A stretch of 64,000 bases of DNA from IMG/VR virus record IMGVR_UViG_3300025316_001101; one strand, given 5' to 3'. The notes below the pieces were generated by a model that was not told the DNA's origin, ran no database searches, and was given only the letters and a program-made list of their open reading frames with translations. Below, piece after piece: positions 9,546 to 34,999 of the stretch (positions are counted from its first letter, which is position 1; each line of letters starts with the position of its first letter). A program made the translations under genes and the position numbers. This DNA is from a virus. Lineage: Duplodnaviria > Caudoviricetes.

Positions 9546-10661
9546 TCATGATATCCAGTGTTTGTTTTGCATAGTCCATTTAATAATGCGATCTAAAGTT
9601 TCATCAAACGATATTGGTTGTCTCCAACCAAGACTTCTCAATTTACTTCCATCTAAAGCATAACGCCTATCATAACCTGGACGGGCAGATTCACTGGGTA
9701 TTAATTTATATAAAAGTTCCTTTCCCATAATTTTAGCAACTGCCCGTGCCAATTCCAAATTATTCAATTCGGTATCGCCACAAATATTATAGCGATCTGG
9801 TCGTTTTGCTCCTTGACTATAACGAGCAGGATGCAGGTTGGACGCAATAAATTTAATGGCATCAGCTTTATTTCTAGCATCCAAATAAATTCTAGAGCCA
9901 ATATACCAACCTTGGTTATTTTCAGCATGATTTCCACCGTGACCACTAAGATTAGTCAATGAAGGGCCATCGGTCTTATCGGCATACACAGGCATTTCTT
10001 TACCTGTAGCAACGTATTGAATAATCTTAGGCAAGAATTTTTCTGGATCTTGCCATTCCCCGATTATATTCATGCAATTTGTAATCACCACAGGCAGATC
10101 ATAAGTACGCCAATAAGCAATCGCTAAAGCTTCTTGGGCTGCTTTAGATGCCGCATATGGATTAGATGGGGCAATTGGCGACCATTCAAGATGCCCTAGA
10201 CTAGGAAGCGGTGGTGCTTCTCCATAAACCTCATCTGTACTAATATGAACAAATAGCTTTGGCTTTGCCTTTCTGGCAAACTCCAACATGTTAACCATCA
10301 ATTCATAATTGTTTCTTAAACAATGTGTGGGATCAGTGGTAGATCGCTCTACAGCAGAATCAGAAGCCATGTTAATAATATAATCAATTGGCTTTTCTGT
10401 AAGAACCCCCCGATCATCAAGACTCCTTCCCATGATTTGATTCTCTAACGGCCAATCAATCGGAACCGTCAAATCATGCATATAGATTCTAACCCGCTTT
10501 GAATTTCCATATCTTTTGAAAACCTCATTACATCGACTAACGATTCCTTTGTGACGGAAAGAATCTAAACCAATAATTTCCCAATCTGTGTTTTCTAACC
10601 AGTATTGGAGACAGTGCGACCCAATAAAACCACCCACACCTGTTAAAAGAACTCTTTTCAT
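9546..10661 (-). CDS. rmlB: dTDP-glucose 4,6-dehydratase-like NAD-dependent epimerase/dehydratase
   Basis: GVGGFIG, STDEVYG, PSNPYAASKA, RPGYDRRYALDGSKL. Confidence 0.9.
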   Translation of the reverse strand: MKRVLLTGVGGFIGSHCLQYWLENTDWEIIGLDSFRHKGIVSRCNEVFKRYGNSKRVRIYMHDLTVPIDWPLENQIMGRSLDDRGVLTEKPIDYIINMASDSAVERSTTDPTHCLRNNYELMVNMLEFARKAKPKLFVHISTDEVYGEAPPLPSLGHLEWSPIAPSNPYAASKAAQEALAIAYWRTYDLPVVITNCMNIIGEWQDPEKFLPKIIQYVATGKEMPVYADKTDGPSLTNLSGHGGNHAENNQGWYIGSRIYLDARNKADAIKFIASNLHPARYSQGAKRPDRYNICGDTELNNLELARAVAKIMGKELLYKLIPSESARPGYDRRYALDGSKLRSLGWRQPISFDETLDRIIKWTMQNKHWIS

Positions 10662-10663
10662 TA

Positions 10664-10918
10664 TTACTCCCACAAATGTATACTATATGGTTTTTTAATT
10701 AACGATTCAATTTTGTTAATCAAATCATGAACCGTTACAATTTCATGACAATCTTGTATCAGTAAATTTATTCTAAACTCATGTTGTAACAATAGCACTA
10801 TTTCCATGCCGTCTACAATAGAGCAACATCCAAGGTCATCAACAACTCTAGACTCAGGAACTATATGTTGCTTCCCTAATACCTTTTCAAGAATTGCAAT
10901 TATTTTTTGTTCAATCAA
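10664..10918 (-). CDS. acyl carrier protein-like
   Basis: IVPESRVVDDLGCCSIVDGMEIVLLLQHEFRI...IVTVHDLI aligns by eye with ACP; probable TTG start at 10918. Confidence 0.65.
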   Translation of the reverse strand: MIEQKIIAILEKVLGKQHIVPESRVVDDLGCCSIVDGMEIVLLLQHEFRINLLIQDCHEIVTVHDLINKIESLIKKPYSIHLWE

Positions 10919-11930
10919 TGATCGGCACCTTTCCAAAACCAATGCCCTTTTCTGGCTCCGCTTCTGAAGAATCTGGCGGATTCTCTACCATTGCTCGCAA
11001 AGTCTCTATAGCATCTCCATAAGAATCACCCTGAATACATACCGAAATAAACAACTCCTTTAGATGAGCAATGGACATCCCAGCCGTATCCTTAACCCAA
11101 CAACTTAAATCATACTTGCTGGGATCGGTAGCACCAAAACTAAAGAGATGATCAAAAAATATCTTCCTAGACTTGGCTCTCGGATGTGGCATCATGAATC
11201 GTTTATCAAATCGACTAGGCCGATTAATGATTCTGTCACCAAGTTTTTCTGGATAATTAGTGGTCGCCAAGAAAACCACATTTTCAATTTTCTCTACGCC
11301 GTCCAATATATTCAATACTTCTGACTCGCAATATTTTTCAAGAATTGAGTCCAAATCCTCCATCAACACCACCAACCGAGTTGTTGGTTGAATGACACGA
11401 AAATGACGCATACATTCAACAAACGTAGATGGATGATTATCAAACTTAAAGACAACGCCACCACGCTTCATAACATCCACTACGACCAATTGGATTGTGC
11501 ATGATTTACCAGATCCCGGTGGCCCCCACAGAATGATGCCTCTCTTATAGATCACCCGATTTAATCTGAACAGTTCCTCATTTTCCCAAAAATTCTGAAT
11601 TTCACTAATTACCTTTTCAGAATTTGTTTCAGGGAAACGAATCAAGCCATCTGTCTTGGTCTCTAATTTTTCAAAATAATGTCCCTGAGTAGGAATGTAT
11701 TTTGGTTCATAGACACCTGGAGGCAATTCCTTAACTGTTACGCCCGTAGGGAAAAATCTAACCCCATCACATGTGTTCCACTGGCACATCTTGCCATACT
11801 CTTTTTCTGGCCCTATTCCACAATCGCCCGCAAAAGATGGCGATTCTGATACGTATCCCTGCTTGGGTGGCCGAGTTGGCGTGCCAGTTAGAAGCTTGTT
11901 TAATTTTCTTTGTTCAGAAGCAGATGACAT
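10911..11930 (-). CDS. AAA+ ATPase (single AAA domain)
   Basis: GPPGSGKS Walker A, MEDLD Walker B, ATTNYPEKLGDRIINRPSRFD second region of homology. Confidence 0.9.
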   Translation of the reverse strand: MSSASEQRKLNKLLTGTPTRPPKQGYVSESPSFAGDCGIGPEKEYGKMCQWNTCDGVRFFPTGVTVKELPPGVYEPKYIPTQGHYFEKLETKTDGLIRFPETNSEKVISEIQNFWENEELFRLNRVIYKRGIILWGPPGSGKSCTIQLVVVDVMKRGGVVFKFDNHPSTFVECMRHFRVIQPTTRLVVLMEDLDSILEKYCESEVLNILDGVEKIENVVFLATTNYPEKLGDRIINRPSRFDKRFMMPHPRAKSRKIFFDHLFSFGATDPSKYDLSCWVKDTAGMSIAHLKELFISVCIQGDSYGDAIETLRAMVENPPDSSEAEPEKGIGFGKVPIID

Positions 11931-14864: not shown

Positions 14865-15743
14865 TTATCCTCTTCCTGGTAAAAGCACATAATCTTTAGC
14901 ATAGCGTCCTTGTGGATTATTTCTGTCTACCACGGGTATCTTTCTGGCTAATTGACCGGTTAAAACAAAAGTACAATCCTCTTCTTTCAAGAAACGATAG
15001 ATTTGTTTCAAAGAAGTCCAATAACCCATTTGTCCTCCACCTCTCGAACAAACTCCAATTAATTCCCCGTTTTCTGCAAACAAACCTCCTCCTGATCTAC
15101 CTCCCCGTGGGGCATTGTTTTGAGTAAGAATCTCGGTCACCCCTCCATTCATCTGTTCATGCACGCACGCTACCAAATAATGTGCGGTATCGCTCTTGTT
15201 ATCACAACCAGTGCTATGATACCAAGTGCCAGAGGTATATTGAAAATCTAATGGTGCAATGGGTGCGCACACTACACCCTTCCAATCCGGCTTAAATCTA
15301 ATTAAACTACAATCATATATCGAAGAACTGTCATCTCCCCACACGTGACACATCACCTCTCCCACGTATCGCTTGCCAGATTCTAATTTATATTGCCCTT
15401 TATAAAATACCTCTACATAAACTTGCTGTGGATTTTTGCGATAATATTCAATACTCCCCCGACCTCTGGAGAACAAATGCCCGCAAGATATAACATATGC
15501 ATAATTGTTCTGACTATCGTAATATACAATTGTGCCTGATCCGCTACGTACATTTGATACAAGCACAGTAGGGATTAACCACTTAGCTACAGACGGCCCT
15601 CGTTCCTCCCATCCTGCACCCGCTGATTGCCTATAACCATAAGGCAATTCTATTACAGGTTTTACTTCTTGAGCAATTGTTAAAGAAGAAAAGGAAAATA
15701 GCAGAGCTATACCAATAATAAGCGATTTTAGAAATGTTTGCAT
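14865..15743 (-). CDS. secreted trypsin-like serine protease
   Basis: Signal peptide; GSGTIV, SCGHLF (His), YDCSLI (Asp), GGRSGGGLF (Ser). Confidence 0.85.
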   Translation of the reverse strand: MQTFLKSLIIGIALLFSFSSLTIAQEVKPVIELPYGYRQSAGAGWEERGPSVAKWLIPTVLVSNVRSGSGTIVYYDSQNNYAYVISCGHLFSRGRGSIEYYRKNPQQVYVEVFYKGQYKLESGKRYVGEVMCHVWGDDSSSIYDCSLIRFKPDWKGVVCAPIAPLDFQYTSGTWYHSTGCDNKSDTAHYLVACVHEQMNGGVTEILTQNNAPRGGRSGGGLFAENGELIGVCSRGGGQMGYWTSLKQIYRFLKEEDCTFVLTGQLARKIPVVDRNNPQGRYAKDYVLLPGRG

Positions 15744-17763: not shown

Positions 17764-19188
17764 TTATTGTTCTTCCCAAGGGGCAATACTGTTATCAACT
17801 ATTTGTGCGGCTGGTTCAAACTCTGGCTCTTTAGGTTTTGGAGGATCATAATTTCCACTAAATCTTAGTCGAATTGATTTACCACCACGGGCAGGACTCA
17901 TAAACCGTGAAAACAACAAATCATGCAGGATTGGATTCACATCAGTAATTCCCAAAAGGTAATTGGTTAGTGCGCCCACTCCTGAACCACGACCAGGACC
18001 AACAGCTTCGGTCCCATCTGTACCGTACTTTTCGGCACAATATCTCCGAGCTTCATCAGTCATCATCTTTTCGATCAAGAAGTAGCTGGCAAATTCTTTA
18101 CTACAAATCAGACCTAGCTCTTCACGGATACGGTCCAAATACAATTGATTTGTGGGCAAACCACGCTTTTTGAATCCTTCCATCACATACTGCCGCAATT
18201 TATCATTAGCACAATCAATCACTGGCAATTTCAAGGAACGATCCAATTGTACGCCTTTTGCTTTTTCACAAATTCGTACTGTATTTCGTTTAGCCTCTTT
18301 GAACAGTTCGTAATCAATGACATCGCTATACTTCTCTTCCCACTTTTTATTGATCTCGTCCTCTGTTTTCATAAAGAGGTTCTGATCCTGCAACTCGAAA
18401 AGCTCTCCTGCTCGGCCCTCTGAAATCTGTTCCTGAATTTCCGCCAAAGTTTTGCCGGTCTGGATCATGAGCATGACCCGTTGCATAAAGCTATCTTCTT
18501 CTTTACAGTAATGGCAATCGTTTGTAAGAACGAGAGGAATGCCAAACTTCTTATGGGCTTCGACAAGAAATGCATTATAGGGCTTTTGTTTATCAAAGTC
18601 CAGCAGCATCATCTCCAAGTAAAAATGCTCGCCAAACATTTCATGGTACTTGCGTACCACGTCCATTGCTTCGTCTTTTTCCTTGGTGTCAAAAGTATAT
18701 CCAATTTCACAGTTGTAGCAACCACTGCAAAAAGTGATTCCTTCCTTATACTTCGTGAGTTGTTCGTAATTTACTCTAGGTTTATAATAAAATCCATGTA
18801 GCCATCCCCAAGAAGTAAGCTGCACCAAATTCTTGTACCCGACCTCATTATGAGCTATAGCAAGAAGGTGGCACGACTTTCGGAAGCGTTTTTTATCATC
18901 TTCGCCCATACCTTTAATGAACTCACCAGTCGATTGACCGATAGGTACATCTGGTTGCTGGGAATTGAGATATAATTCACATCCAAACAATGGAAATAGC
19001 CCATTATCTTCACAAGCTTGAATTTGGCGTGGGATGGCTCCCATCATGCCATGATCAGTTATGCAAAGATATTGCTGATTAGCGGCCTTAGAATACTCTG
19101 CATACTCTTCGACCATAGCATATCCATCAAGGACACTGAAATCAGTATGTCTATGAAGGTGCTCAAACCCCGTAATTTCATGCTGCAT
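17764..19188 (-). CDS. dnaE: DNA polymerase III alpha, N-terminal gene (PHP domain through the GRGS/FxRF region)
   Basis: HLHRHTDFSVLDG, ITDHG, GCELY, TNDCHY, GPGRGSG, LLGITD, LLFSRFMSPAR; ends before PDID. Confidence 0.95.
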   Translation of the reverse strand: MQHEITGFEHLHRHTDFSVLDGYAMVEEYAEYSKAANQQYLCITDHGMMGAIPRQIQACEDNGLFPLFGCELYLNSQQPDVPIGQSTGEFIKGMGEDDKKRFRKSCHLLAIAHNEVGYKNLVQLTSWGWLHGFYYKPRVNYEQLTKYKEGITFCSGCYNCEIGYTFDTKEKDEAMDVVRKYHEMFGEHFYLEMMLLDFDKQKPYNAFLVEAHKKFGIPLVLTNDCHYCKEEDSFMQRVMLMIQTGKTLAEIQEQISEGRAGELFELQDQNLFMKTEDEINKKWEEKYSDVIDYELFKEAKRNTVRICEKAKGVQLDRSLKLPVIDCANDKLRQYVMEGFKKRGLPTNQLYLDRIREELGLICSKEFASYFLIEKMMTDEARRYCAEKYGTDGTEAVGPGRGSGVGALTNYLLGITDVNPILHDLLFSRFMSPARGGKSIRLRFSGNYDPPKPKEPEFEPAAQIVDNSIAPWEEQ

Positions 19189-19197
19189 TATTTCACC

Positions 19198-19422
19198 TTA
19201 TGATACTGGCTTGTCTTTCTTAGCCTTCTTGCCAAGATTTGCCTGCCAATCATCATAAAGTTTTTTGGCTTCTGCGTCTAGGGCAGCTACCTCTTGCTGA
19301 AATTTTGTATAAATTTCCTTGATCTCAGCAGCCTTCGCCTTTTTGATATCATGGATCTTTCTAATCTCATCAGCAAACCCTGCAAACTCATCAGTCAACA
19401 ATAGTTCGATTTCGCCTAACAT
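19198..19422 (-). CDS. hypothetical coiled-coil protein
   Basis: 74-aa Lys/Glu/Ala-rich ORF in the operon. Confidence 0.6.
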   Translation of the reverse strand: MLGEIELLLTDEFAGFADEIRKIHDIKKAKAAEIKEIYTKFQQEVAALDAEAKKLYDDWQANLGKKAKKDKPVS

Positions 19423-19432
19423 TTTCTTTCTC

Positions 19433-20137
19433 CTATATGTTCGCTTTGTGTTTCCGACAAATCCGTATCTTGTCTAGATTTTCAAAGCCTTTTTCACCTA
19501 ATATACCATCGGCAAACCCGTAGTAAATTGCTTCATCAGGAGGTAGATACCAGTCACTTTTATCTCGAATTTTTCTATCCAAGAATCTGGAAATCTGCCC
19601 TTCCTTCCACTTTCGTTCTTTGAAGTATGGACCGATTATAGCTCGTCTGGCGAAAATTTGCAACATGCGTTTGCAAAGGCGTTCGTTGACATCAATCATT
19701 TGTTTAGCGGCAATTGAATTAGCATCAAAACTGATAGACCCATGATGGATCATGAAATCAGTATCCGGCATCAGAACCCGATTGTCAGCGGCTTGAAGTA
19801 CCACTCCACTCATTGAAGATGCAACAGTGTGAATCAACATCGTGACAGTAGATCTAGCAAACCGAATAGAATTAAAAATAGCCATACCATCATTCCATTC
19901 ACCACCGATGGTATGGCTATGCACTAAAATATTTGTATCTCGTTGACTATCAAGAACATGCATGTTCTTGACAAACCCTGAAGCCATTCTAAATTCAACT
20001 CCTGGCTCTGTTCCAACATCATCCATTGGAGCCGCACCATGCAAATACAATTCTCTGGAGTGGTAATTGATACCATAAGTGTGAATATCACTAATCAACT
20101 GTTCCAATTCTGACTTCTTACGCAATGAAGGGGCCAT
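19433..20137 (-). CDS. clpP: ClpP-family serine peptidase
   Basis: IHSxGG-like HTIGG; ASSMSG (Ser), FMIHHG (His), SDWY..PDEAIYYGFAD (Asp). Confidence 0.9.
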   Translation of the reverse strand: MAPSLRKKSELEQLISDIHTYGINYHSRELYLHGAAPMDDVGTEPGVEFRMASGFVKNMHVLDSQRDTNILVHSHTIGGEWNDGMAIFNSIRFARSTVTMLIHTVASSMSGVVLQAADNRVLMPDTDFMIHHGSISFDANSIAAKQMIDVNERLCKRMLQIFARRAIIGPYFKERKWKEGQISRFLDRKIRDKSDWYLPPDEAIYYGFADGILGEKGFENLDKIRICRKHKANI

Positions 20138-20261
20138 GTTGATCTCCGTCGTAAATGATTACTGTGTAAATAGTTAGAGATTGACACCTCTGTTTAATTT
20201 GCACAATCACGACTCAAAAACACAACTCGTTACCCAGTCAAGACTTGGCGACAATTAATAA

Positions 20262-21869
20262 TTACTCTGGACCATACCCATCTTCGTATTTTTTACGAGG
20301 AATTACGTCAATGTCATCCTCATCCGGCCCATGACAATGGAATACTATTTCCTCCCCATCAGCCTTTTGAGTAGCCAAACATACGTCTCTACCCCACAAA
20401 ACATACAACGATTGCAGAGTAGCTGTAGTGTATGATGGATACAACATGCGGCCGTCGAACTCATGTTGTAAGAACAAATATCCCTTGCCCTTATGATTCG
20501 GATCGGTCAATCTGATGTTGGGCAATCCACCATTAGTATACATCTTTAACAACTTCTGCTTAATCCGTTTTGGATCTCTGTCTTCGATACGATACTCACC
20601 ATTAGGATATCTTTTCCAATCAAAGAATTCGTATTTATTACAAAATTCCGGCGTAAAGAACTCGCCCAGTGCAAGCATGTCACTATAGTAACGTCTTACA
20701 TCCAAAACCTTTTGGTGACCCAAACCCAACTTCTGATCCCAGTCCTCACGCTGCTTAATATCTTCACAAGCTTCCCATTCCGGCCCAAACTGACCTTTGT
20801 CCCATCGCTCTTCAATATCCAAGAACAAACAAAAGCCTAACTTGTAAGGATTGAGTGAATACTTGCCACCCAACACCCCCATCTTATGCTTGCAATATTC
20901 TATAATTCCACAATCTCCAGTCTTTTGTCCCAGACCTACCAATCCCCTTTTGGCAATGATGTTATAATCTACAAAACTAGCCCAACCCTCATTCAACATA
21001 TGGGTCATTCGCTGAGGAGCAAAATATACCGCCTCAGCATACAACATAGAAATAATATCAGCTTGCCACGGCTTAAAAGGAGCGTTGTCTCGTAAGAACC
21101 CCATAACGTCTTTCGTAGGATCACGAAAGACATCCATCTCTTCGGCCACTTCTTCCTCTCGCACTATTTGATTTTGTCTCTCCTTCCACTCCTTCGGATT
21201 TAGATAAGCATCCATGTACTCATGATCATCCTTTACAGGCAACCTATTGGGCTGATGATAGGTTCTAGTGTCTCTCACTATTGGATCTTTGATCTTTCTA
21301 ATATCCCATGCCTTCGTAGGATCAATCAACGTTTCTATTCTTAATACATGATCAATAAACTCTGTGACTTTTTCTTTGCCCCAACGAGCAATATAGCGAC
21401 GAATCCTAGTTCCATGATTAGCCAATTGGTTCATCATATTTTCGCTAGTCGGACTAAAAAATACATTGCTCTTAAAGAAATCATTATGCCCAATAGCGTG
21501 ACTGATAACCGTCACGTCATCTACTAGCGTATTAGAATCCAAGCAATAAATATAACAAGGATTAGTATTGATAACCATTTCGTATATTCTATGCTTTCCA
21601 TGTTCGTATCCCTTCTGTAATTCTCCATATTCCATTCCCCATTTCCAGTGCGGAAATCTTACAGGAAATCCTCCATAAGACGCTACTTCACTAATTTCAT
21701 CATATGTCAACTTTTGAACAACAATAGGATAAAAATCTAAATTAAAATCATGACACTCTTGAATAATCTTTGGTATTAATACTGATAAATCCTCTGGTAG
21801 CTTTAACCCAGGAACCGTATTATCTCCAATCAAAAGAGGCGTACCTCGCATGAACTTATTCGTCGCCAT
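20262..21869 (-). CDS. spoVR: SpoVR/YcgB family protein
   Basis: YGGFPVRFPHWKWG, IYEMVINTNPC, HAIGHNDFFK, LNEGWAS, NPYKLG. Confidence 0.95.
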   Translation of the reverse strand: MATNKFMRGTPLLIGDNTVPGLKLPEDLSVLIPKIIQECHDFNLDFYPIVVQKLTYDEISEVASYGGFPVRFPHWKWGMEYGELQKGYEHGKHRIYEMVINTNPCYIYCLDSNTLVDDVTVISHAIGHNDFFKSNVFFSPTSENMMNQLANHGTRIRRYIARWGKEKVTEFIDHVLRIETLIDPTKAWDIRKIKDPIVRDTRTYHQPNRLPVKDDHEYMDAYLNPKEWKERQNQIVREEEVAEEMDVFRDPTKDVMGFLRDNAPFKPWQADIISMLYAEAVYFAPQRMTHMLNEGWASFVDYNIIAKRGLVGLGQKTGDCGIIEYCKHKMGVLGGKYSLNPYKLGFCLFLDIEERWDKGQFGPEWEACEDIKQREDWDQKLGLGHQKVLDVRRYYSDMLALGEFFTPEFCNKYEFFDWKRYPNGEYRIEDRDPKRIKQKLLKMYTNGGLPNIRLTDPNHKGKGYLFLQHEFDGRMLYPSYTTATLQSLYVLWGRDVCLATQKADGEEIVFHCHGPDEDDIDVIPRKKYEDGYGPE

Positions 21870-23104
21870 TATCTTTTAGCTCCTGTCTTGCTTTTCTTTT
21901 TAGTGTTTTCTGCCACGCCTAGCAAATCTACAATCGCTCGCTTAATCTGCTTGTTTCTTTCTTCTTCCCCTAATTGAGGTGTATACCAACCCCAACCACC
22001 ACTATCAGGATCTTTACGATCTGGCTCGGCAATGCCAGTAGTTCTCACATTGGGCAAATGCCCAATGTTTTCATCTACATAATGTTGTAGACTTCCATCA
22101 TATGAATATGACAACACCTGCGTAATGCCAACGAAATTTGCAATTTCTGGCGGGAACTGTTTCTTGATTATATCACAAAACTTAGCATTATCTCCATCGT
22201 AGTTTTCTCCATCTGTAAAGTAAAATACATATACATTCCACTTTTCTGGAGGAAATCTATTTTCTAATTGTTTAGCAATTAGCTGTAATGCCGAAGAACA
22301 AGTTGTTCCGCCTCCATACCGATGACGATAGAATTTATTCTGATCCACTTCAGAAGCGATAGTGTCATGCCAAACATACATTTCTTCCACACGCTTATAA
22401 AATTTTCTAAGCCAAATGTCAATCCACCATGCCATATCACTTACAATGTCACATTTATATTGGTCCATACTTCCCGAGCCGTCTCTAGCAAAGAACACCA
22501 CTGCATTAGAAGCTGGTATCTTTATTTCACGATACTGACGGTATCTACGATCACTGTTGATCGGCGTGATCAATCTAATAGGATCTGCGAACCCTGGAAT
22601 CTTGTGAAGATTCATAATCTCTCCACTGGCACACATTCGTTTAAGAGCCTGCAACATAGTCCGTCTATTATGTCGTAATGATTCCGGTCCCTGCATAGAA
22701 ATGTCATTGTACTTAATCTTAATCTCTTCATAGGTTTGATTAGGCTTCGGTTTAAGATCGGGAAGTTTAAGTTCTTCTTGCAAGAACTTGAGAACTTCTT
22801 CCAAATCCACATCAATATCAATTCCATCACCTTCTTCCTGCCCCGCTCCTCTGCCCTGTCCTTTATCAGGATCTTTACCAACAACGTCACCCTTCTTTCC
22901 AGGACCACGACCAATACCCTGCCCTTCCTTGCCAAATACGAAATGTGGTATGTTTATTCGAGGGATGGTGATTCTAACTTTGTCGCCCTTACCCCTAGTT
23001 CTAAATATCGATCCATCTTCAATGAACTTTTTTAACGCCTTACGCCGTCTACCAGCGTAAATGTCCATGAAATCTTGATAATCTTCTTCGACCCTTCGAG
23101 GCAT
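21869..23104 (-). CDS. yeaH: YeaH/YhbH (DUF444) vWA-like protein
   Basis: GQGIGRGPG Gly-rich linker, MIDAS-like DGSGS, GGTTCSS, FTDGEN. Start MPRRVEE with AGGAG SD; translationally coupled to spoVR. Confidence 0.93.
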   Translation of the reverse strand: MPRRVEEDYQDFMDIYAGRRRKALKKFIEDGSIFRTRGKGDKVRITIPRINIPHFVFGKEGQGIGRGPGKKGDVVGKDPDKGQGRGAGQEEGDGIDIDVDLEEVLKFLQEELKLPDLKPKPNQTYEEIKIKYNDISMQGPESLRHNRRTMLQALKRMCASGEIMNLHKIPGFADPIRLITPINSDRRYRQYREIKIPASNAVVFFARDGSGSMDQYKCDIVSDMAWWIDIWLRKFYKRVEEMYVWHDTIASEVDQNKFYRHRYGGGTTCSSALQLIAKQLENRFPPEKWNVYVFYFTDGENYDGDNAKFCDIIKKQFPPEIANFVGITQVLSYSYDGSLQHYVDENIGHLPNVRTTGIAEPDRKDPDSGGWGWYTPQLGEEERNKQIKRAIVDLLGVAENTKKKSKTGAKR

Positions 23105-23128
23105 GTTGTTTCTCCTTTTGTATATTTT

Positions 23129-23157
23129 ATTATAGCTGCAATGTTCAGATTTACCAA
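23129..23157 (-). promoter_or_regulatory. sigma70-type promoter upstream of yeaH-spoVR
   Basis: TTGGTA-N17-TATAAT. Confidence 0.6.
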
Positions 23158-23168
23158 ACCCATTAATG

Positions 23169-23201
23169 AAAAAGGCTCGCCGGTACTTGTACCGGCGAGC
23201 C
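23169..23201 (-). terminator. terminator between prkA and yeaH
   Basis: GGCTCGCCGGTAC/GTACCGGCGAGCC inverted repeat followed by TTTTT on the minus strand. Confidence 0.8.
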
Positions 23202-23233
23202 ACAACCCAACCCATCCCAACAACAACTATCTA

Positions 23234-25327
23234 TTACTTATTATCTGCAATATCGCCTCGGGCAAATATTGACCCTACGTAATCAAGAATATCCGTAGCA
23301 CTTTGATCATTATAACCTTTATGCTTGATTAAGCGTTGTTTAATTGCATCGATCTTCTCTTGGATATCAGGATCAACTACGGCCGCACCACTAACGTGCA
23401 AAGCAGACAATTTAATATGATCTTTGGTATCTTCGAATAACTTGGCTTCCAAAGCCCGCTTTAACTCAGGATTTGAATCCCACTGGAACGTCTTCCCCTT
23501 GGTGGCCAAACTACCAATAAAGGCTGCCAAACTTCTACGGAAATCGTCCACACCCGTTTCTGGAATGTCAATCTTTTCTTCAATTGACCGCATAAGGCGT
23601 TCATCCGGCTGTTGATCCTTTTCGGTATATGGATTACGAACCTTAGCCTTATTGATATAAGCCATCATGTTGTCAATATAATTCGAACACAGCCTAATAA
23701 CTGCACCTTCGTCGCCCACCAAAGCCTCCTGAACTTCTTTCTTGAGGATTTCGTCCAATTCCTTCATGGCAAGATCAATGCAAGTAGAATACTTGCTAAT
23801 CTCATCCTTGTTAGTAATCAAACTGCTTTGGTCCAAACCCTCACGTAGTTCATTAAGAACCATGAAAGGATTGATATAATCCTGGTGTGAACTGAGGCAA
23901 TTCGATATCTTGTCCTGCACGTATCGGCAGCTTACTCCACCGAACATGCCTTCCATTGGATATTTATCCCTCAATTCCTTAACTGAATCTTCAGTTTTTC
24001 CGGGCAGACTCTTTCCGTCATATAGCTTAGCCTTGTCTACCAATGTTAATTCACCATCCTTATCATCTTGCAATCTGGTAAGAATAGCCCACAACCCGGC
24101 AATTTCCAATGTGTGTGGGGCCACATGCTGACGGACCTTTCCATTTCCGTAATAATGCTCCAGCACCTTCTTTTCATCGCCCCACCGCAATAAATACGGC
24201 ACATCGATTTTAACGGTACGATCACGAAGAGCTTCCATCGACTGGTTGTTCTTTAATTTTTCGTATTCTGGATTATTCGTGTGACCAATAAGCATCGTGT
24301 CTACACTAATCTGCGAGAACTTCTTCGGCTTTATCTGCTGTTCCTGACTTGCACCCAACAGATCATACAAGAACTCCTGAGCTAATTTGAGCATTTCAAT
24401 AAACTCAACAAGACCACGATTTCCAACACAAAACTCGCCATCGAAATTGAACGCTCTTGGATCACTATCCGAACCAAAGTGCGGCAACTGTGCAAAGTTA
24501 ATATCGCCTGTCAATTCCGTACTGTCTTGATTCTTTTCATCTTTAGGTTGGAATGTAGCGATTCCCATTCTATCTGCTTCAGAATAAACTTTACGAACAA
24601 CACGAATGTGCTTGTTCACTACAGTTAACCAATCGCCATTATTGATCAACATTAATTCTTCCATGAACTTCTTGCTACGAGGATCTAAGTCTCCATCGCA
24701 CTTTAGAGTATAAAGACTAATGCGATCCTTCTCTGGGGTCTGTTCTTGAAGAACATCATTCAACTCAGCAACAATCTTTTGTCGCACACTTCCTGCGATT
24801 AATTTAATCGGGTCTTCATGCATGGGGGAAAGATTTTCACTGTGAGTAAAAATGCCAGTTTGTCCAGTAGGCAAATCTACCCACTTGAATGTATACCACG
24901 ATCCCTCTGGAGTGCGAGAGTATCTTTCTAATCCCTTCTTTAACAAACGACAAATGGTAGATTTAGCTGATCCTACAGGGCCGTGCAGCAATAATACCCG
25001 CTTTTCCGTGCCATATCCACCCGCTGCACCTCTCATGAATTTCACAAGATTTTCCAATGTATCCTCAAGTCCAAAAATAGGAACTTCGAGATCATCAAAA
25101 AATGAATAATGCGTATAAGTCTTTCTGTACCGCTTAAATTTATTGCAACCCTTTGACATAATCATGTCGTAAGCTCGCTGATAAGCGGTGCGAATAAGCC
25201 GAGGATTTTGATACACTCGGTCTAAATATTCAGCAAATGACATTTCCTCATGAAGTGTTTGAAACTCTTCTTTATTGAAACATGCTGACAGTTTCTTTAG
25301 TCTATCAGGTCCAACTGCATTTTCCAT
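23234..25327 (-). CDS. prkA: PrkA/YeaG AAA+ serine-kinase family protein
   Basis: LLLHGPVGSAKS, FQPKDEKNQDSTELTG, GNRGLVEFIEMLK, EALRDR, APHTLE, EGMFGGVSCRY. Start MENAVG with GAGGA SD. Confidence 0.95.
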   Translation of the reverse strand: MENAVGPDRLKKLSACFNKEEFQTLHEEMSFAEYLDRVYQNPRLIRTAYQRAYDMIMSKGCNKFKRYRKTYTHYSFFDDLEVPIFGLEDTLENLVKFMRGAAGGYGTEKRVLLLHGPVGSAKSTICRLLKKGLERYSRTPEGSWYTFKWVDLPTGQTGIFTHSENLSPMHEDPIKLIAGSVRQKIVAELNDVLQEQTPEKDRISLYTLKCDGDLDPRSKKFMEELMLINNGDWLTVVNKHIRVVRKVYSEADRMGIATFQPKDEKNQDSTELTGDINFAQLPHFGSDSDPRAFNFDGEFCVGNRGLVEFIEMLKLAQEFLYDLLGASQEQQIKPKKFSQISVDTMLIGHTNNPEYEKLKNNQSMEALRDRTVKIDVPYLLRWGDEKKVLEHYYGNGKVRQHVAPHTLEIAGLWAILTRLQDDKDGELTLVDKAKLYDGKSLPGKTEDSVKELRDKYPMEGMFGGVSCRYVQDKISNCLSSHQDYINPFMVLNELREGLDQSSLITNKDEISKYSTCIDLAMKELDEILKKEVQEALVGDEGAVIRLCSNYIDNMMAYINKAKVRNPYTEKDQQPDERLMRSIEEKIDIPETGVDDFRRSLAAFIGSLATKGKTFQWDSNPELKRALEAKLFEDTKDHIKLSALHVSGAAVVDPDIQEKIDAIKQRLIKHKGYNDQSATDILDYVGSIFARGDIADNK

Positions 25328-25398
25328 ATCATTAATCCTCAATGGGTTTATGGGTTTAAGTTAAGTATATCCAATCAAAACTTAGTATCCAAATGAAA

Positions 25399-25704
25399 TT
25401 ATTCAACGGCTCCAAAATGTTTTCCAGAACTAATATCATCAATCGGATTGTATGGTTGAGTCCCCATCTTAGAAGCTCTTTCGGCCATTTCACGTTCCTT
25501 CATGGCTTGAGGAAGTTTATTATTATATTGCCAATCATGAGAATCATGTGGCACTAGAACTGCGGTTAAACTCATTAACTTCTGTTTTTTGTCTGAACCG
25601 CACTTAGGGCAAATAACGCCTGGATATGCACCCGTTTCATCAAACTTTGTCAATTCAACAAATTCGGTATTGCACTCTTCACATTGAAAATCATATAAGG
25701 CCAT
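25399..25704 (-). CDS. FmdB-family Zn-ribbon protein
   Basis: MALYDFQCEEC...F...CPKCGS...KLMS. Confidence 0.85.
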   Translation of the reverse strand: MALYDFQCEECNTEFVELTKFDETGAYPGVICPKCGSDKKQKLMSLTAVLVPHDSHDWQYNNKLPQAMKEREMAERASKMGTQPYNPIDDISSGKHFGAVE

Positions 25705-27539: not shown

Positions 27540-28553
27540 TCAATCCTTAAAATTAACGGCTGCATCGATACCTTTTTCTTCCACATACCGCTTAATTCCT
27601 GAAGATGCAAAATACTGATCTCCATAAATTTTGAAATCTGCCTGTAGCGGCTGTCCAGACTGCACATTCTCTTGCAGTACCTTTTCCATCATACCGTTTC
27701 TGCTGGAAATGTAGTCTAACCGACTAATAATTCCTGCTTCTAACGACTGGGGCTCCTTGATACTTCCCCATGCAACAGTCCCGTGATGAGCAGCTATGCA
27801 ATGCATTAATTCAATTACAAATTCTGGTTCCACTTGAATCTTACCTTCTTCAGCTATCGTTTGAACCAAGAACATTCCATAAGGAATGTGACCAATAATC
27901 TTCTCGGTAATCAATTGATGCGTAGTACCGATTGCATTGAATGAATATGTTTTCACCTTCCCAATATCATGCAAAATAGCTGCGGCGTACAAAACATCTT
28001 TATTGATGAAACCATATCTTGAAAAAGATACATCAACATATGCCCTACAAAGAGCTAACACCTCTGCTGAATGCACTAACAATCCACCATTGTAAGCATG
28101 ATGAATTAATACGGCTGCTGGACTCATTTTAAGCTTTTCTAAATCCAATTTGCCCAAACAAGCCATAACAAAACGATGATGCTCTGAGTTTTCCCAAAAA
28201 GAACTATCCTTCAACAAGGCAAAAGCTTCTCGCATTTCATCGTCTGAAGCCTTATAAACCTTAAAAATTGCACTATCTTCTTTTGGAACTGATTCTTTAG
28301 TAATATTATGCCAAGCATCAATAACGATATTCTGGTACTCCGCCATCTGATCCTTGAAAGCATCTAACTGGATTATGTCTCCAACGTGAGGATAATTAGG
28401 ATTGGTTTGTACGTCATTGGGCACTCCCCACATAAAGGATTTGACAACCCCAACCTTTGTTCGTAGCATCACTTGCCAATATAGCTTGTTTTGCTTTGTC
28501 GTGCGTAATTCTTGGTCGATCACAACCGCTCTAAGCGGATTCGGTAAACTCAT
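27540..28553 (-). CDS. yhaM: YhaM/Cbf1-like OB-fold plus HD-domain 3'-5' exonuclease
   Basis: N-terminal OB-like TTKQNKLYW..LRTKVG; HHAYNGGLLVHS, ILHDIGKVKTY, GHI, AHHG, RLDYISS. Confidence 0.85.
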   Translation of the reverse strand: MSLPNPLRAVVIDQELRTTKQNKLYWQVMLRTKVGVVKSFMWGVPNDVQTNPNYPHVGDIIQLDAFKDQMAEYQNIVIDAWHNITKESVPKEDSAIFKVYKASDDEMREAFALLKDSSFWENSEHHRFVMACLGKLDLEKLKMSPAAVLIHHAYNGGLLVHSAEVLALCRAYVDVSFSRYGFINKDVLYAAAILHDIGKVKTYSFNAIGTTHQLITEKIIGHIPYGMFLVQTIAEEGKIQVEPEFVIELMHCIAAHHGTVAWGSIKEPQSLEAGIISRLDYISSRNGMMEKVLQENVQSGQPLQADFKIYGDQYFASSGIKRYVEEKGIDAAVNFKD

Positions 28554-29394
28554 TATGTATTTTCCTGTATTTTGGTTCAAATGTTAAATAATCGTAATGC
28601 GGAAAATTAAGGTGACAATCACCAAACAACCTCAGTGAATGATAGTCAAAATTCTTTGCTGCGTCAATAGGATTATCAAAAGACCCCAAGTATAACTCCT
28701 TGCCATCAATTGCGATCCGTGCCTGCCATGTGTTCCCACGTTTTCTTACACCCTTATACATGGCTTTTGTTGGCTTCAATCTCATGGCTGCTTTTTGTTT
28801 TTCAATAGCTAAATCACTTTGCTTATGGCCCATCTTGGCTAACGACAATTTTGCCTTAGAATCTTCTGTCATATGTTTTCCAACATTTCCCAACCCTATC
28901 TTTCTTTTTATCTCATCTGTATGTTTCATACCCATGTGTGATGCACTCATTTGTTGTTTTGTTTGATTAGTAACCATTCGTTTACATTGCGATTCACTTA
29001 ATTTAGCTCTAGATTCCGCAGACCACACCCTTCTGCTGTTAGCCGCTCCTATTTTCCTTTTGGTTTCTTCCTTATGTTTTCTACCTCTTGGACTTCCACC
29101 AGATGTTGGTTGTATATTATAACACCACCCCCACACACAATCTATCCAATACTGTTCTTTACCATCCAAATTATTTTCATTACCCACCTCTTCCAATATA
29201 TAAAATTCAAAATTACATCCTCCATACTTATTCCAAGCATTCTGCAAATGATTGTTATAATGTTTATTCGATTTAAGTAATGATTTATGTTCACAAAATC
29301 TGCGATGTATTCCTTTTCTCAAACACGCCTGCCCGACATATATTTTACCGTCAATCTTGTTTTTTATCCCGTATATACCTTGAATCTTGTTCAT
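28531..29394 (-). CDS. GIY-YIG homing endonuclease with NUMOD3-like repeats and AP2 domain
   Basis: GIYGIKNKIDGKIYVG...RRFCEH...LQNAWNKYG..FEFYILEE...YNI; GRKHKEETKRKI repeats; YKGVRKRGNTWQARI..YLGSFD..AAKNFD. Confidence 0.92.
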   Translation of the reverse strand: MNKIQGIYGIKNKIDGKIYVGQACLRKGIHRRFCEHKSLLKSNKHYNNHLQNAWNKYGGCNFEFYILEEVGNENNLDGKEQYWIDCVWGWCYNIQPTSGGSPRGRKHKEETKRKIGAANSRRVWSAESRAKLSESQCKRMVTNQTKQQMSASHMGMKHTDEIKRKIGLGNVGKHMTEDSKAKLSLAKMGHKQSDLAIEKQKAAMRLKPTKAMYKGVRKRGNTWQARIAIDGKELYLGSFDNPIDAAKNFDYHSLRLFGDCHLNFPHYDYLTFEPKYRKIHNEFTESA

Positions 29395-29551: not shown

Positions 29552-30970
29552 TTATATATCGTCTTCATTACAAGTTTTTCTAAGTTTTTCTATTTTTTGT
29601 GTTGTGGAATCGCAAATAATGGTGCCAATAATCTGCACGGGCACAATGTCATGTCCAGCTATATCCTCAACCTTCCAGTCTCCACCCTTGACAAGCAGAT
29701 CAGGCATAATTTCTTTAATCAAATTATAAGGTGTATCTTCATTAAAAGAAACCACAAAATCTACACTCTCTAAACCAGCCACCACATCCATTCTGTCTTC
29801 TAATGTCATAACCGGTCTATCATGCCCCTTTAATCGCCTTACGCTTTCATCGCCATTAATTGCCACAATCAACCTGTCTCCAAGCTGTTTAGCTTTATCT
29901 AAATATCTTACGTGCCCTTTAGTTAAACCACAATCAAAACATCCATTTGTAAAAACTAACTTGTAATCCCGTTCCTTGGGTGGCATACACAACTTAGCCC
30001 GCACAGGGTCCACATGCCGCATCAATTCATAAGGTGTCACCGGCTTATTATGCATATTCTGCACATAAACAGCCCCAGCCTCGAATGCCACTTGAGCTAC
30101 GTCCACCACATCCATCCCATGTGCTAAACCCATAGCTAAGAAAGCCATAAAACAATCACCGGCTCCAATCACGCTATTGGCAACAACGCTTTTTCTTGGC
30201 CGATATTCAAAATATCTGCCTGCCACCTTGCCTACGACTCCATTGCCTCCTTGGGTAATGACTACTGCCATACATTTTGCACTATCTTGAATTAAATCAC
30301 ACTGTCTCTCCCAGTCCTTAATCCCTGTCATTAATTCGGCTTCTTTAGAATTTGGCTTAAAAACAGTACACCCTTCCCACTCCCCTATGTTCAAATTTTT
30401 AGAATCTACAATGGTAATGATATCTTCATCACGCATGCTTTTCAACCATCTCTGTTTGCCCCAAGGATATCCATTAAATACACCCTTTTGATAATCTGAA
30501 AAAATAACCACTTCTGGTTTGGGGGCCGCACTAAATTTTTCTTCCAACGCTTCTTGAGATGCAACAATACTTGACATGCCATAATCTGATTCTTCCACAT
30601 CCCAACGACACAAAGGAAATTCTCCCTGATAATAACGCTTCTTGATGGGTACGTGCCCATCAGGAATCGTATGACAATTTGCCGTACCAATCCTAGATTC
30701 CATCAAAACCCATCTGGCATAACTATCAATCATAGCAAACAATTGCACATCTATATCGAAATGTCTAAATTGACACGCAACATTACCAACGCCGCCTGGA
30801 ACTGCCACCTTGCATACATCACTAGCCGATTTCATTATGGGTACTGGAAATTCTGGGGATACTCGATTGGCATCCACCTCATAATATTGATCAATTAGCA
30901 TATCACCCACTAAGGCAATTTTTGGCTTGCGTTCTTTTGATCTTCTTAGAAATTCATGTATAGCTTCCAT
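29552..30970 (-). CDS. hldE: bifunctional heptose kinase / nucleotidyltransferase (HldE/RfaE-like)
   Basis: PfkB part: GDMLID.Y...RVSPEFPVP, GGVGNVA, SDYQKG, GAGDCF. Nucleotidyltransferase part: FTNGCFD..TKGH, GDRLIVAINGDESVRRLKG..RP, KGGD, STT. Confidence 0.93.
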   Translation of the reverse strand: MEAIHEFLRRSKERKPKIALVGDMLIDQYYEVDANRVSPEFPVPIMKSASDVCKVAVPGGVGNVACQFRHFDIDVQLFAMIDSYARWVLMESRIGTANCHTIPDGHVPIKKRYYQGEFPLCRWDVEESDYGMSSIVASQEALEEKFSAAPKPEVVIFSDYQKGVFNGYPWGKQRWLKSMRDEDIITIVDSKNLNIGEWEGCTVFKPNSKEAELMTGIKDWERQCDLIQDSAKCMAVVITQGGNGVVGKVAGRYFEYRPRKSVVANSVIGAGDCFMAFLAMGLAHGMDVVDVAQVAFEAGAVYVQNMHNKPVTPYELMRHVDPVRAKLCMPPKERDYKLVFTNGCFDCGLTKGHVRYLDKAKQLGDRLIVAINGDESVRRLKGHDRPVMTLEDRMDVVAGLESVDFVVSFNEDTPYNLIKEIMPDLLVKGGDWKVEDIAGHDIVPVQIIGTIICDSTTQKIEKLRKTCNEDDI

Positions 30971-33766: not shown

Positions 33767-34999
33767 TTACCCCGCCCCTAAAGAGGGCGGGGCTTCCGTT
33801 CCAACTAACAGCCCATCTTTGACGGGTCTTATGTCAGGACAAACGGCTAATCCTCGATTCCAGCGAGGAGTTATACCTTCATTGTGAATATTGGTGGCAG
33901 CATTTTCATCCCTATCGTGATTAGTCCAACAATTCCAACAAGTCCATTCTCTATCTTCAAGAGTCAAGTCCTTGTTTTGCCAACCACATACAGAGCATAA
34001 TTGCGAAGATGGAAACCATTTATCCACCTGTCGCAACTCACGACCATACCATTCACATTTGTATTTTAGTTTTTGAATGAACGAAGAAAATGAGGCATCA
34101 TTTTGTTTCCTATGATACGCTCGTTCTCTCCATCGTTCAATTTTCCTAATTTCAGGATCAGCGTTCTTGAGCATATCCTTGACCGACAATGTTTCTAAAA
34201 CAATGACTTGGTTTTCGTTCACTATTTTAGTGCTAACTTTGTGCTGGAAGTCCTCACGAATGTTCCTGATGCGTTGCTCTAACTGGTTTAGTTTGAGATA
34301 CGCTTCTGTCCTACCTTTGCTTTCTTTTTCAGTTCTATTCTTTGCTTTCTTCAAAAACTTCAACCGATTGGAATATTTGGTTCTCGGCAATGGGTTTTTG
34401 TATTTTGTTCCATCGCTACCAACAATAGCACTAACATTTAAGTCAATACCGATGGTTTTATTTGTTGGTTTTAGTTTAGGAATGTCTCGGCTAGTCGTAA
34501 TGCTGATGAAATATTGTCCCGCTTTGTTCTTACTTACCGTAGCAAACTCAATCTCGCCTTCTAATGGTCGGTGAAGCAGAATACGGATGCCTTCCTTGAA
34601 CTTTGGAAAACTTACTTTGTTGCCTTCCACTTTGATGTTTTGTTGGACACGGAATGATTGTTTGCCGTGTTTCTTCTTGAAACGAGGAAATCCCTTTTTG
34701 CCTTTCTTTTGTTTTTTGATGTTGTTGAAGAAATTATCGTATGCGTTTTGTAAGCATCGGGCAGAGTATTGTAATGGTTGGCTTGATGGTTCTTTGAGCC
34801 AAGGTAGTTCTTTCTTCATTTCGGGAAGCGAAGTGGCATTGTCATAATAGTTGAGCGTCTTACCTTCACTTTGATAGGCGGTCATACGTCCAGCAAGCCA
34901 ATGATTATACAGAAACCTTACACAACCGAAATGCTTATTTAGTAGCACTTCCTGTTCAGATGTTGGTTCTAATCTGTATTTGTAAGAAACTAAACTCAC
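33767..34999 (-). CDS. tnpB: TnpB RNA-guided endonuclease, catalytic triad intact
   Basis: N-terminal YKYRLEPT..Q..LLNKHFGCVRFLYN; RuvC-I GID, RuvC-II VLE, Zn finger CSVC...CWNC, RuvC-III HDRDENAATNI. Confidence 0.95.
   Translation of the reverse strand: MSLVSYKYRLEPTSEQEVLLNKHFGCVRFLYNHWLAGRMTAYQSEGKTLNYYDNATSLPEMKKELPWLKEPSSQPLQYSARCLQNAYDNFFNNIKKQKKGKKGFPRFKKKHGKQSFRVQQNIKVEGNKVSFPKFKEGIRILLHRPLEGEIEFATVSKNKAGQYFISITTSRDIPKLKPTNKTIGIDLNVSAIVGSDGTKYKNPLPRTKYSNRLKFLKKAKNRTEKESKGRTEAYLKLNQLEQRIRNIREDFQHKVSTKIVNENQVIVLETLSVKDMLKNADPEIRKIERWRERAYHRKQNDASFSSFIQKLKYKCEWYGRELRQVDKWFPSSQLCSVCGWQNKDLTLEDREWTCWNCWTNHDRDENAATNIHNEGITPRWNRGLAVCPDIRPVKDGLLVGTEAPPSLGAG

Follow-up and report, generated by a model that had tools for sequence, protein, structure and literature searches.

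Introduction

The genes prkA, yeaH, and spoVR form one of the most widespread bacterial modules of still unknown biochemistry. YeaG, the PrkA-family protein of Escherichia coli, was tied to global starvation proteolysis in October 2026 and renamed SpdA. It is needed for the starvation-induced, largely non-specific degradation of cytoplasmic proteins, which feeds amino acids and ATP to new synthesis (PMC13684143). PrkA of Bacillus subtilis hydrolyzes casein in an ATP-dependent manner (PMC9512850), whereas PrkA of Bacillus anthracis alone has negligible protease or kinase activity (PMC13001217). Kinase activity was not demonstrable in either Bacillus study. Altered sporulation, osmotic-stress responses, and nitrogen-starvation transcription are described for bacterial mutants (PMC13001217 and abstracts of other papers). 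In this study, we analyzed a 64,000-nucleotide stretch, hereafter the window, of the IMG/VR virus record IMGVR_UViG_3300025316_001101 (Duplodnaviria; Caudoviricetes). At positions 19433-25327 it carries prkA, yeaH, and spoVR, followed by a gene for a ClpP-family protease.

The triad is already on record in phages. It is annotated in Thermus phage phiYS40 (2006 record) and its relatives, and it stands in the annotation table of Ralstonia phage RsoM2USA, which offers no more than a generic guess at the function of SpoVR (PMC8504454). PHROG families exist for PrkA, YeaH, and SpoVR, and our literature search found no paper on the role of the module in phages. An earlier note on this DNA, made from the sequence alone, had considered the arrangement uncharacterized in a phage. 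This holds for the module, which has been characterized in no phage, but not for the presence of the triad, which phiYS40 and RsoM2USA already document. New here are the clade-wide quantification of the module, the examination of its linkage to ClpP, and the fold result for SpoVR.

Results

Five co-oriented minus-strand genes occupy positions 19433-25704 of the window and encode an FmdB-type zinc-ribbon protein, PrkA, YeaH, SpoVR, and ClpP (Table 1). The earlier note had described full-length prkA, yeaH, and spoVR in canonical order with an intact clpP next. All four genes are indeed intact on the minus strand, and the coordinates 19433-25327 are exact. Its inventory missed the conserved zinc-ribbon gene at 25704-25399. 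The three genes of the triad are adjacent, co-oriented, in the canonical order, and conserved together. From their sequences and context, the block is almost certainly a PrkA-YeaH-SpoVR module that belongs to the phage.

PrkA matched both AAA_PrkA (PF08298, 3.5e-79) and the PrkA C-terminal domain (PF06798, 1.9e-72) over nearly the whole profile. The Walker A motif GPVGSAKST and the blocks RGxxEFIE, FQPKDEKNQD, HTN, and DRT show at least 95% conservation across 82 phage and 75 bacterial rows, and a Walker B-type acidic motif is present. Residues 26-695 matched the PDB entries 9xip, 9xiq, and 9xir ("Serine protein kinase", 692 amino acids (aa)) with an E-value of 2.9e-201; a literature search found no paper on 9xip or on a PrkA cryo-EM structure. 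The identity to E. coli YeaG is 25%. The open reading frame (ORF) at 25342-23234 opens at TTG 25342. The likely start is ATG 25327, which has a GAGG ribosome-binding site ahead of it.

YeaH matched DUF444 (PF04285, 6.5e-66) and carries a C-terminal von Willebrand factor A (vWA) domain with a metal ion-dependent adhesion site (MIDAS). The MIDAS residues D244-x-S246-x-S248 and the motifs GGGT and DGxN (numbered on the 448-aa ORF, 23215-21869) are kept in phage and bacterial rows. Its identity to E. coli YeaH is 27%. Codons 1-36 of the ORF run through a hairpin at 23201-23174 and are unconserved. Because this upstream part crosses a terminator-like hairpin and lacks conservation, Met37 at 23107 is the likely start of yeaH. 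When the likely starts are used, 126 nt separate prkA from yeaH, and the yeaH and spoVR genes overlap. The hairpin is closely followed by a promoter-like site at 23157-23129; sigma-70 consensus matches were no commoner than in shuffled sequence. Hairpins comparable to 23174-23201 follow prkA in 10 of 60 distinct relatives, and this hairpin may set the expression ratio of PrkA to YeaH and SpoVR. Other relatives carry insertions of 0.5-2.7 kb between prkA and yeaH.

SpoVR matched the Pfam families SpoVR (2.1e-98) and SpoVR_C (4.3e-09) and shares 27% identity with E. coli YcgB across 507 residues. H74, E97, H124, H128, and N293-E294-G295 are invariant in 62 phage and bacterial sequences. A search of the PDB by sequence found no solved relative of either SpoVR or YeaH. 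We then considered the fold. The AlphaFold2 (AF2) model of SpoVR reached a predicted local distance difference test score (pLDDT) of 84.9, and Foldseek found no PDB match to it at E <= 0.001. In an exhaustive search with VIA-align, the top 48 matches were nearly all zincin or gluzincin metallopeptidases. They included DUF885, M1 aminopeptidases with LTA4H, M30, M32, M3, M4 (thermolysin and LasB), M9 and collagenases, M61, and ACE. The alignments covered 170-215 residues at a root-mean-square deviation of about 4 A, with Z scores of 7-11, a range that helical proteins can reach without homology. The helix with His-x3-His and the NEGWA motif of SpoVR recall the HExxH ... NEGFA arrangement of M1 enzymes. 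Our search found no literature tying SpoVR or YcgB to zincins.

On the strength of this model, chances are about even that SpoVR is a zincin-derived protein that lacks the catalytic Glu. Several points weigh against this lead. SpoVR has no HExxH motif: the corresponding residues are H124-A-I-G-H128, with Ala in place of the catalytic Glu in the 62-row consensus, and the equivalent motif of E. coli YcgB, HACYGH, has one residue extra. The Z scores could arise without homology, and alignment of the SpoVR profile to E. coli PepN (M1) with hhalign gave a probability of 0.8% and no sequence-level link to zincins.

The genes at 19433-25327 are themselves free of inteins. Inteins with LAGLIDADG homing endonucleases interrupt SpoVR of many relatives in frame, one or two per protein; at least two insertion sites are used, and the ORFs measure 716-1375 aa (for example, L036:13292-17398, L013:13275-16100, and L012:13781-16696). 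A few YeaH ORFs of relatives are similarly enlarged and may hold inteins, and intein-bearing PrkA representatives of relatives are about 1035-1070 aa long.

Relatives of PrkA at 63-74% identity were found on 136 IMG/VR contigs. Among 81 related phage loci, the same gene order was seen for YeaH in 78, for SpoVR in 77, and, immediately ahead of prkA, for the zinc ribbon in 77. In GenBank, the nearest record is LR756511.1, a 595-kb uncultured huge phage with the same gene order and a PrkA that is 69% identical. The same synteny is present in a complete 572-kb terminal-repeat genome (G002). PrkA matched 17 of 50,697 GenBank phage records. A contig of 546,147 bp (CALFYV010000090.1, L087), deposited in an 'uncultured Bacteriovoracaceae' metagenome-assembled genome (MAG), has the full phage synteny. 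It holds the HldE-like gene, o178, the zinc ribbon, PrkA (74% identity), YeaH, SpoVR, ClpP, and DnaE-PHP. Most likely, this contig is the genome of a huge phage placed in the wrong bin; the Bacteriovoracaceae label is at best a weak hint to the host and was not used as host evidence.

Of at least 597 PrkA matches in bacteria, the 80 with the highest similarity were sampled. The nearest, which are 52-56% identical, come from Myxococcota, Bdellovibrionota, Planctomycetota, Chloroflexota, Calditrichota, and others. The triad has the same order in 49-56 of 79 bacterial loci, where YeaH is 31-39% and SpoVR 37-44% identical to the phage copies. The zinc-ribbon gene was absent upstream of prkA in the 70 bacterial loci inspected, and it was therefore rejected as a component of the bacterial operon. 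In a maximum-likelihood tree (quick search, LG+G4), 56 non-redundant phage PrkAs fell on one side of a branch and 48 bacterial rows on the other, with support of 96-99 in the SH-like approximate likelihood ratio test (SH-aLRT). Thus, the phylogeny against host copies that the earlier note had proposed places the phage PrkAs in one clade apart from the sampled bacterial PrkAs. The bacterial rows group roughly by phylum; the root is set by two outgroup branches, both very long.

The tree points to a single old acquisition by the ancestor of a large freshwater clade of huge phages, followed by vertical descent, which we consider very probable. Against it, the tree is unrooted as to the donor, and the bacterial sample holds the best 80 of at least 597 matches. 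Comparison of the loci indicates that the clade added the FmdB-type zinc ribbon ahead of the module and that part of the clade has a divergent ClpP behind it.

Selection was estimated as the ratio of nonsynonymous to synonymous substitution rates (dN/dS), given as Nei-Gojobori medians over pairs of moderately diverged relatives. The median was 0.035 for PrkA, 0.089 for YeaH, 0.11 for SpoVR, and 0.091 for the zinc ribbon. For ClpP it was about 0.07, a rough value with high dS between the pairs. These values indicate strong purifying selection on the module, a conclusion tempered by dS being near saturation for some pairs. Among the findings that the earlier note had named as speaking against its reading were relaxed selection and a contig chimeric with host DNA. 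Both are contradicted, the former by dN/dS of 0.035-0.11 and the latter by the synteny in the 595-kb GenBank phage, the complete 572-kb genome, and more than 130 IMG/VR contigs.

ClpP matched PF00574 with 62.8 bits against a cut-off of 20.2, and its gene has its own GGAG ribosome-binding site. Its AF2 model reached a pLDDT of 92.9, and the top 50 Foldseek matches in the PDB were all cellular ClpP proteins (E-values down to 4.8e-14, template modeling score of about 0.8). Both alignments show S108 and H131 without variation. The latter aligns to the catalytic His of ClpP, and S108 stands at the catalytic Ser by column-wise reading. The catalytic Asp would be D187 (invariant in 30 rows and at 90% or more in 56) or D192. 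The predicted fold identifies the protein as a true ClpP-fold protease. It belongs to a subfamily of its own, with at least 317 homologues on contigs of huge-phage size, up to 634 kb. No close relative was found among GenBank phages, and the identity to annotated phage maturation proteases is 23-32%. A role as prohead protease was considered and rejected, since the gene is flanked by spoVR and dnaE, lies away from capsid and portal genes, and is absent from G002.

We examined the linkage of ClpP to the triad in 57 loci in which both flanks were seen. The gene lies between spoVR and dnaE-PHP in 23 of them and is not there in 34, and the spoVR-dnaE gap is 150-310 nt in several of the loci lacking it. 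In the complete relative G002, which has the triad, neither profile nor protein searches found a Clp-family gene. None of the 79 sampled bacterial operons contains ClpP. The linkage that the earlier note relied on, and whose lack of conservation it had named as a further finding against its reading, is thus real in some relatives but is not a constant feature of the clade. LR756511 and two other relatives have a different, canonical ClpP far from the triad; the LR756511 protein was rejected as a relocated orthologue because it has no detectable similarity to the ClpP at 19433-20137. The ClpP orthologues of two relatives (L040 and L045) are intact genes.

The presence of ClpP requires at least eight state changes on the PrkA tree. 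Relatives whose ClpP proteins pair most closely are also paired in that tree, and this match argues that ClpP was inherited with the module and repeatedly lost. Because of the linkage in 23 of 57 loci and the absence from G002 and from the bacterial operons, ClpP is probably an accessory and not an obligate fourth subunit. The 259-kb record holds no AAA_2/ClpX-type unfoldase gene. The classical AAA gene at 10911-11930 was rejected as an unfoldase dedicated to ClpP, since it occurs in genomes with and without ClpP alike. A complex prediction for PrkA and ClpP scored 0.00, with controls not run, and gives no evidence either way.

The block lies in the replication arm of a huge phage. The 259-kb IMG/VR record is estimated to be 50% complete, with an expected whole genome of about 520-600 kb; it is labeled 'provirus', and its GC content and composition are even throughout. 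The earlier note's statement that the triad is embedded among phage genes was confirmed by nearby genes for DnaE, UvsX/RecA recombinase, a helicase, dihydrofolate reductase (DHFR), a homing endonuclease, and a transfer-messenger RNA (tmRNA). The two parts of the split DnaE enclose the tmRNA, a peptidase, an AAA ATPase, and an epimerase. SsrA-type tags are classic ClpXP degrons, and by analogy it is conceivable that the phage tmRNA is functionally tied to the phage ClpP. The 74-aa ORF matched nothing in Pfam or PHROG, and its membership in the module is uncertain. The flanking sequences examined in relatives showed no homologue of the trypsin-like peptidase. In those relatives in which its position was found, the classical AAA ATPase gene lies about 5-10 kb from the triad, and the HldE-like gene has been kept close to the triad in 70 of the 81 related loci. 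DNA near-identical to 19433-25327 (28-100% of sampled words) was found in metagenome runs of freshwater, lake water, and freshwater sediment. These runs come from five studies of 2016-2020 and indicate that the phage recurs in lakes. A search for RNA data sets found none for the block or for prkA alone, which does not bear on whether the genes are expressed.

Table 1. Positions of the module genes and of neighboring features in the window.
Feature	Positions	Strand	Remarks
FmdB-type zinc-ribbon gene (101 aa)	25399-25704	-	Pfam Zn_ribbon_8, 1e-09; adjoins prkA on its upstream side
prkA, PrkA/YeaG-family AAA+ ATPase (697 aa from ATG 25327)	23234-25327	-	AAA_PrkA and PrkA C-terminal domain
Terminator-like hairpin (12-bp stem, 9 GC pairs, T-run)	23174-23201	-	Between prkA stop and likely yeaH start
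yeaH/DUF444 vWA-MIDAS gene (about 412 aa from likely start Met37)	21869-23107 (ORF to 23215)	-	Pfam DUF444
spoVR, SpoVR/YcgB family (535 aa)	20262-21869	-	Pfam SpoVR and SpoVR_C; start overlaps yeaH stop
Divergent ClpP-family serine protease gene (234 aa)	19433-20137	-	PF00574; 124 nt past spoVR
Small ORF between clpP and dnaE-PHP (74 aa)	19198-19422	-	Homologue in 9 related loci
Split DnaE, PHP part and start of core	17764-19188	-	Other part about 10.6 kb away
Split DnaE, rest of core, fingers, and helix-hairpin-helix domain	4497-7184	-	
Phage tmRNA, tag peptide ANTFAVAA	13852-14203	-	About 5 kb from the ClpP gene
Trypsin-like serine peptidase gene	14865-15743	-	Pfam Trypsin_2, 4.1e-07; further protease of the same arm
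Classical AAA ATPase (PF00004, 339 aa)	10911-11930	-	Clade core gene
NAD-dependent epimerase/dehydratase	9546-10673		
HD-domain gene	27540-28580		End overlapped by homing endonuclease ORF
GIY-YIG/NUMOD3 homing endonuclease	28531-29394	-	Mobile element in phage arm
HldE-like bifunctional sugar kinase/adenylyltransferase	29552-30970	-	PfkB and cytidylyltransferase-like domains
TnpB/IS605 OrfB-type gene, Cas12f-like TNB domain	33767-34999	-	Mobile element in phage arm

Discussion

The best overall explanation of this locus is a phage-owned copy of the PrkA(YeaG/SpdA)-YeaH-SpoVR(YcgB) system with the mechanism outlined here, and we regard it, taken as a whole, as evenly poised between right and wrong. 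PrkA would be a hexameric AAA+ motor that engages cytoplasmic proteins. YeaH, with its vWA/MIDAS domain, would serve as an adaptor or coupling factor, as in MoxR-vWA pairs, and SpoVR, as a zincin-like helical protein without the Glu, would bind or process the unfolded chain. The phage module would turn on bulk, non-specific protein turnover, free of host control by RpoS and NtrC. This turnover would release amino acids and energy for the long, costly infection by a huge phage in nutrient-poor water. Where present, ClpP would add peptidase capacity and be dispensable.

The role in bulk proteolysis is proposed because of the phenotype of E. coli YeaG, the casein hydrolysis by B. subtilis PrkA, and the zincin-like neighbors of SpoVR. 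The inactivity of B. anthracis PrkA alone fits a need for partners. By this analogy, proteolysis for resources is a tentative role, to which we give somewhat less than an even chance. Several points count against it. The E. coli proteins from which the role is borrowed share only 25-27% identity with those of the phage, SpoVR lacks the catalytic Glu, YeaH and YcgB are named nowhere in the E. coli study (PMC13684143), and the protease activity of PrkA is disputed between the two Bacillus studies (PMC9512850 and PMC13001217).

A bolder form of this proposal, which we consider doubtful, is that PrkA, YeaH, and SpoVR make up a three-part ATP-dependent protease, with SpoVR as its zincin-derived peptide-handling or peptidase subunit. 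Huge phages would then carry a deregulated copy, some with ClpP, that liquidates the host proteome. If true, this would account for the inactivity that some studies see for PrkA by itself, and the module would be a viral counterpart of starvation-induced 'autophagy-like' proteolysis.

The module could instead act as a signaling or regulatory takeover that alters host stress, dormancy, or stationary-phase programs, such as RpoS or nitrogen-starvation outputs or sporulation-like differentiation. The regulatory phenotypes of bacterial mutants (PMC13001217 and abstracts of other papers) agree with such a role, and so does the protein of a putative regulatory family, the zinc ribbon, that is fixed upstream of prkA. 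We nevertheless consider this unlikely, since PrkA kinase activity was not demonstrable in either Bacillus study, the bacteria with the nearest PrkAs are not endospore formers, and the E. coli phenotype is now explained by proteolysis (PMC13684143). The earlier note had inferred that the phage may reprogram host dormancy or starvation responses; the more recent work on YeaG favors bulk proteolysis.

AAA+/vWA pairs of the MoxR family are generally assembly or maturation chaperones. Like MoxR-vWA, CbbQO, and NorQD, the module might therefore remodel a large phage complex, for example, the replisome or a giant capsid. Its position among replication genes and the retention of the triad by unrelated phage groups are consistent with this role. 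However, no client gene is consistently linked, bacteria use the triad without any phage complex, and the triad is rare in cultured phages, with PrkA matches in only 17 of the 50,697 records. Together, these points make a phage-complex chaperone improbable.

The earlier note took the clpP linkage to suggest that the triad and ClpP work as one unfoldase-adaptor-protease machine, in which PrkA would feed the ClpP chamber. Several observations are compatible with a four-part machine. In this phage, as in 23 of 57 informative relatives, a co-oriented ClpP gene comes after spoVR, its model has a true ClpP fold with Ser and His kept, and it appears to be under purifying selection and inherited with the module. 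In addition, ClpP needs some unfoldase, since the 259-kb record has no ClpX-type AAA_2 partner; however, host ClpX or ClpA could fill this place. The distribution speaks against the proposal, as ClpP is missing from the site in 34 of 57 loci, with only 150-310 nt between spoVR and dnaE in some. The complete 572-kb relative has no Clp-family gene, other relatives have an unrelated canonical ClpP far from the triad, and ClpP occurs in 0 of 79 bacterial operons. A 124-nt spacer and its own ribosome-binding site part ClpP from spoVR, whereas yeaH and spoVR overlap. The claim is therefore not supported, and we consider a four-part machine very unlikely.

That the triad is host DNA, through chimeric assembly or as cellular sequence beside a provirus, has a negligible probability: the 'provirus' label and the MAG binning of L087 would fit it, but the same order with phage genes on both sides recurs in more than 130 viral contigs, LR756511.1, and G002, the phage proteins form their own clade at 52-56% (PrkA) and 31-44% (YeaH and SpoVR) identity to bacterial ones, the GC content is uniform, and L087 is a 546-kb contig with full phage synteny that is most likely a misbinned phage.

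A phage-owned PrkA-YeaH-SpoVR system bears on the bacterial one as well. The long-kept phage copies are a natural experiment, under selection as tight as that on core genes and outside the control of the host. They show that PrkA, YeaH, and SpoVR form a self-sufficient functional unit, whether or not the zinc ribbon is counted in, and that ClpP lies outside the minimal machine. If resource recycling is true, it would be a new class of host-takeover function for huge phages of nutrient-poor waters. The phage proteins also offer compact, divergent material for reconstituting the system.

Among known systems, the bacterial 'long PrkA' operon is the closest. Its three genes match those of the phage in identity, order, and direction, and the Walker A motif, the MIDAS, and the SpoVR invariants are common to both. 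The solved PrkA of PDB 9xip, 9xiq, and 9xir is of this type. The phage block differs in the zinc ribbon ahead and, in about 40% of loci, ClpP behind, whereas the bacterial operons have neither. It also differs in its setting in a phage replication arm, where control by host sigma factors is presumably absent. YeaG(SpdA)-YeaH with YcgB of E. coli, and PrkA-YhbH with SpoVR of B. subtilis and B. anthracis, share the Pfam families and motifs of the phage proteins. They are the only members with phenotypes, namely starvation proteolysis, nitrogen-starvation survival, sporulation, and osmotic stress. The E. coli proteins are 25-27% identical to those of the phage (E-values of 1e-26 to 1e-47), and their third gene, ycgB, is unlinked.

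In phiYS40/TMA and relatives and in RsoM2USA, the genes for PrkA, DUF444, and SpoVR lie close together as in the present block. Their PrkA proteins are only 24-32% identical, which suggests independent or very old separate lineages. The order in phiYS40 is yeaH-spoVR-(extra gene)-prkA, unlike prkA-yeaH-spoVR here, and the triads of the Thermus phages and RsoM2USA have no ClpP and no reported zinc ribbon.

The phage ClpP has the same full-length fold as cellular ClpP (S14), with Ser108 and His131. However, it is only 21-23% identical, carries an extra N-terminal helix, and forms its own subfamily. Unlike the genes of phage capsid maturation proteases, its gene has no capsid or portal genes next to it, and G002 does without it. 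MoxR-type AAA+/vWA pairs resemble the module in combining an AAA+ ring with a MIDAS adaptor. If SpoVR is zincin-derived, the module would also resemble FtsH and Lon, in which AAA+ is coupled to a peptidase, with an AAA+ motor and a metallopeptidase-like part as in FtsH. The module differs from MoxR, FtsH, and Lon in that PrkA is a Pfam family of its own with a distinct C-terminal domain, SpoVR is without HExxH, and the parts are three separate polypeptides.

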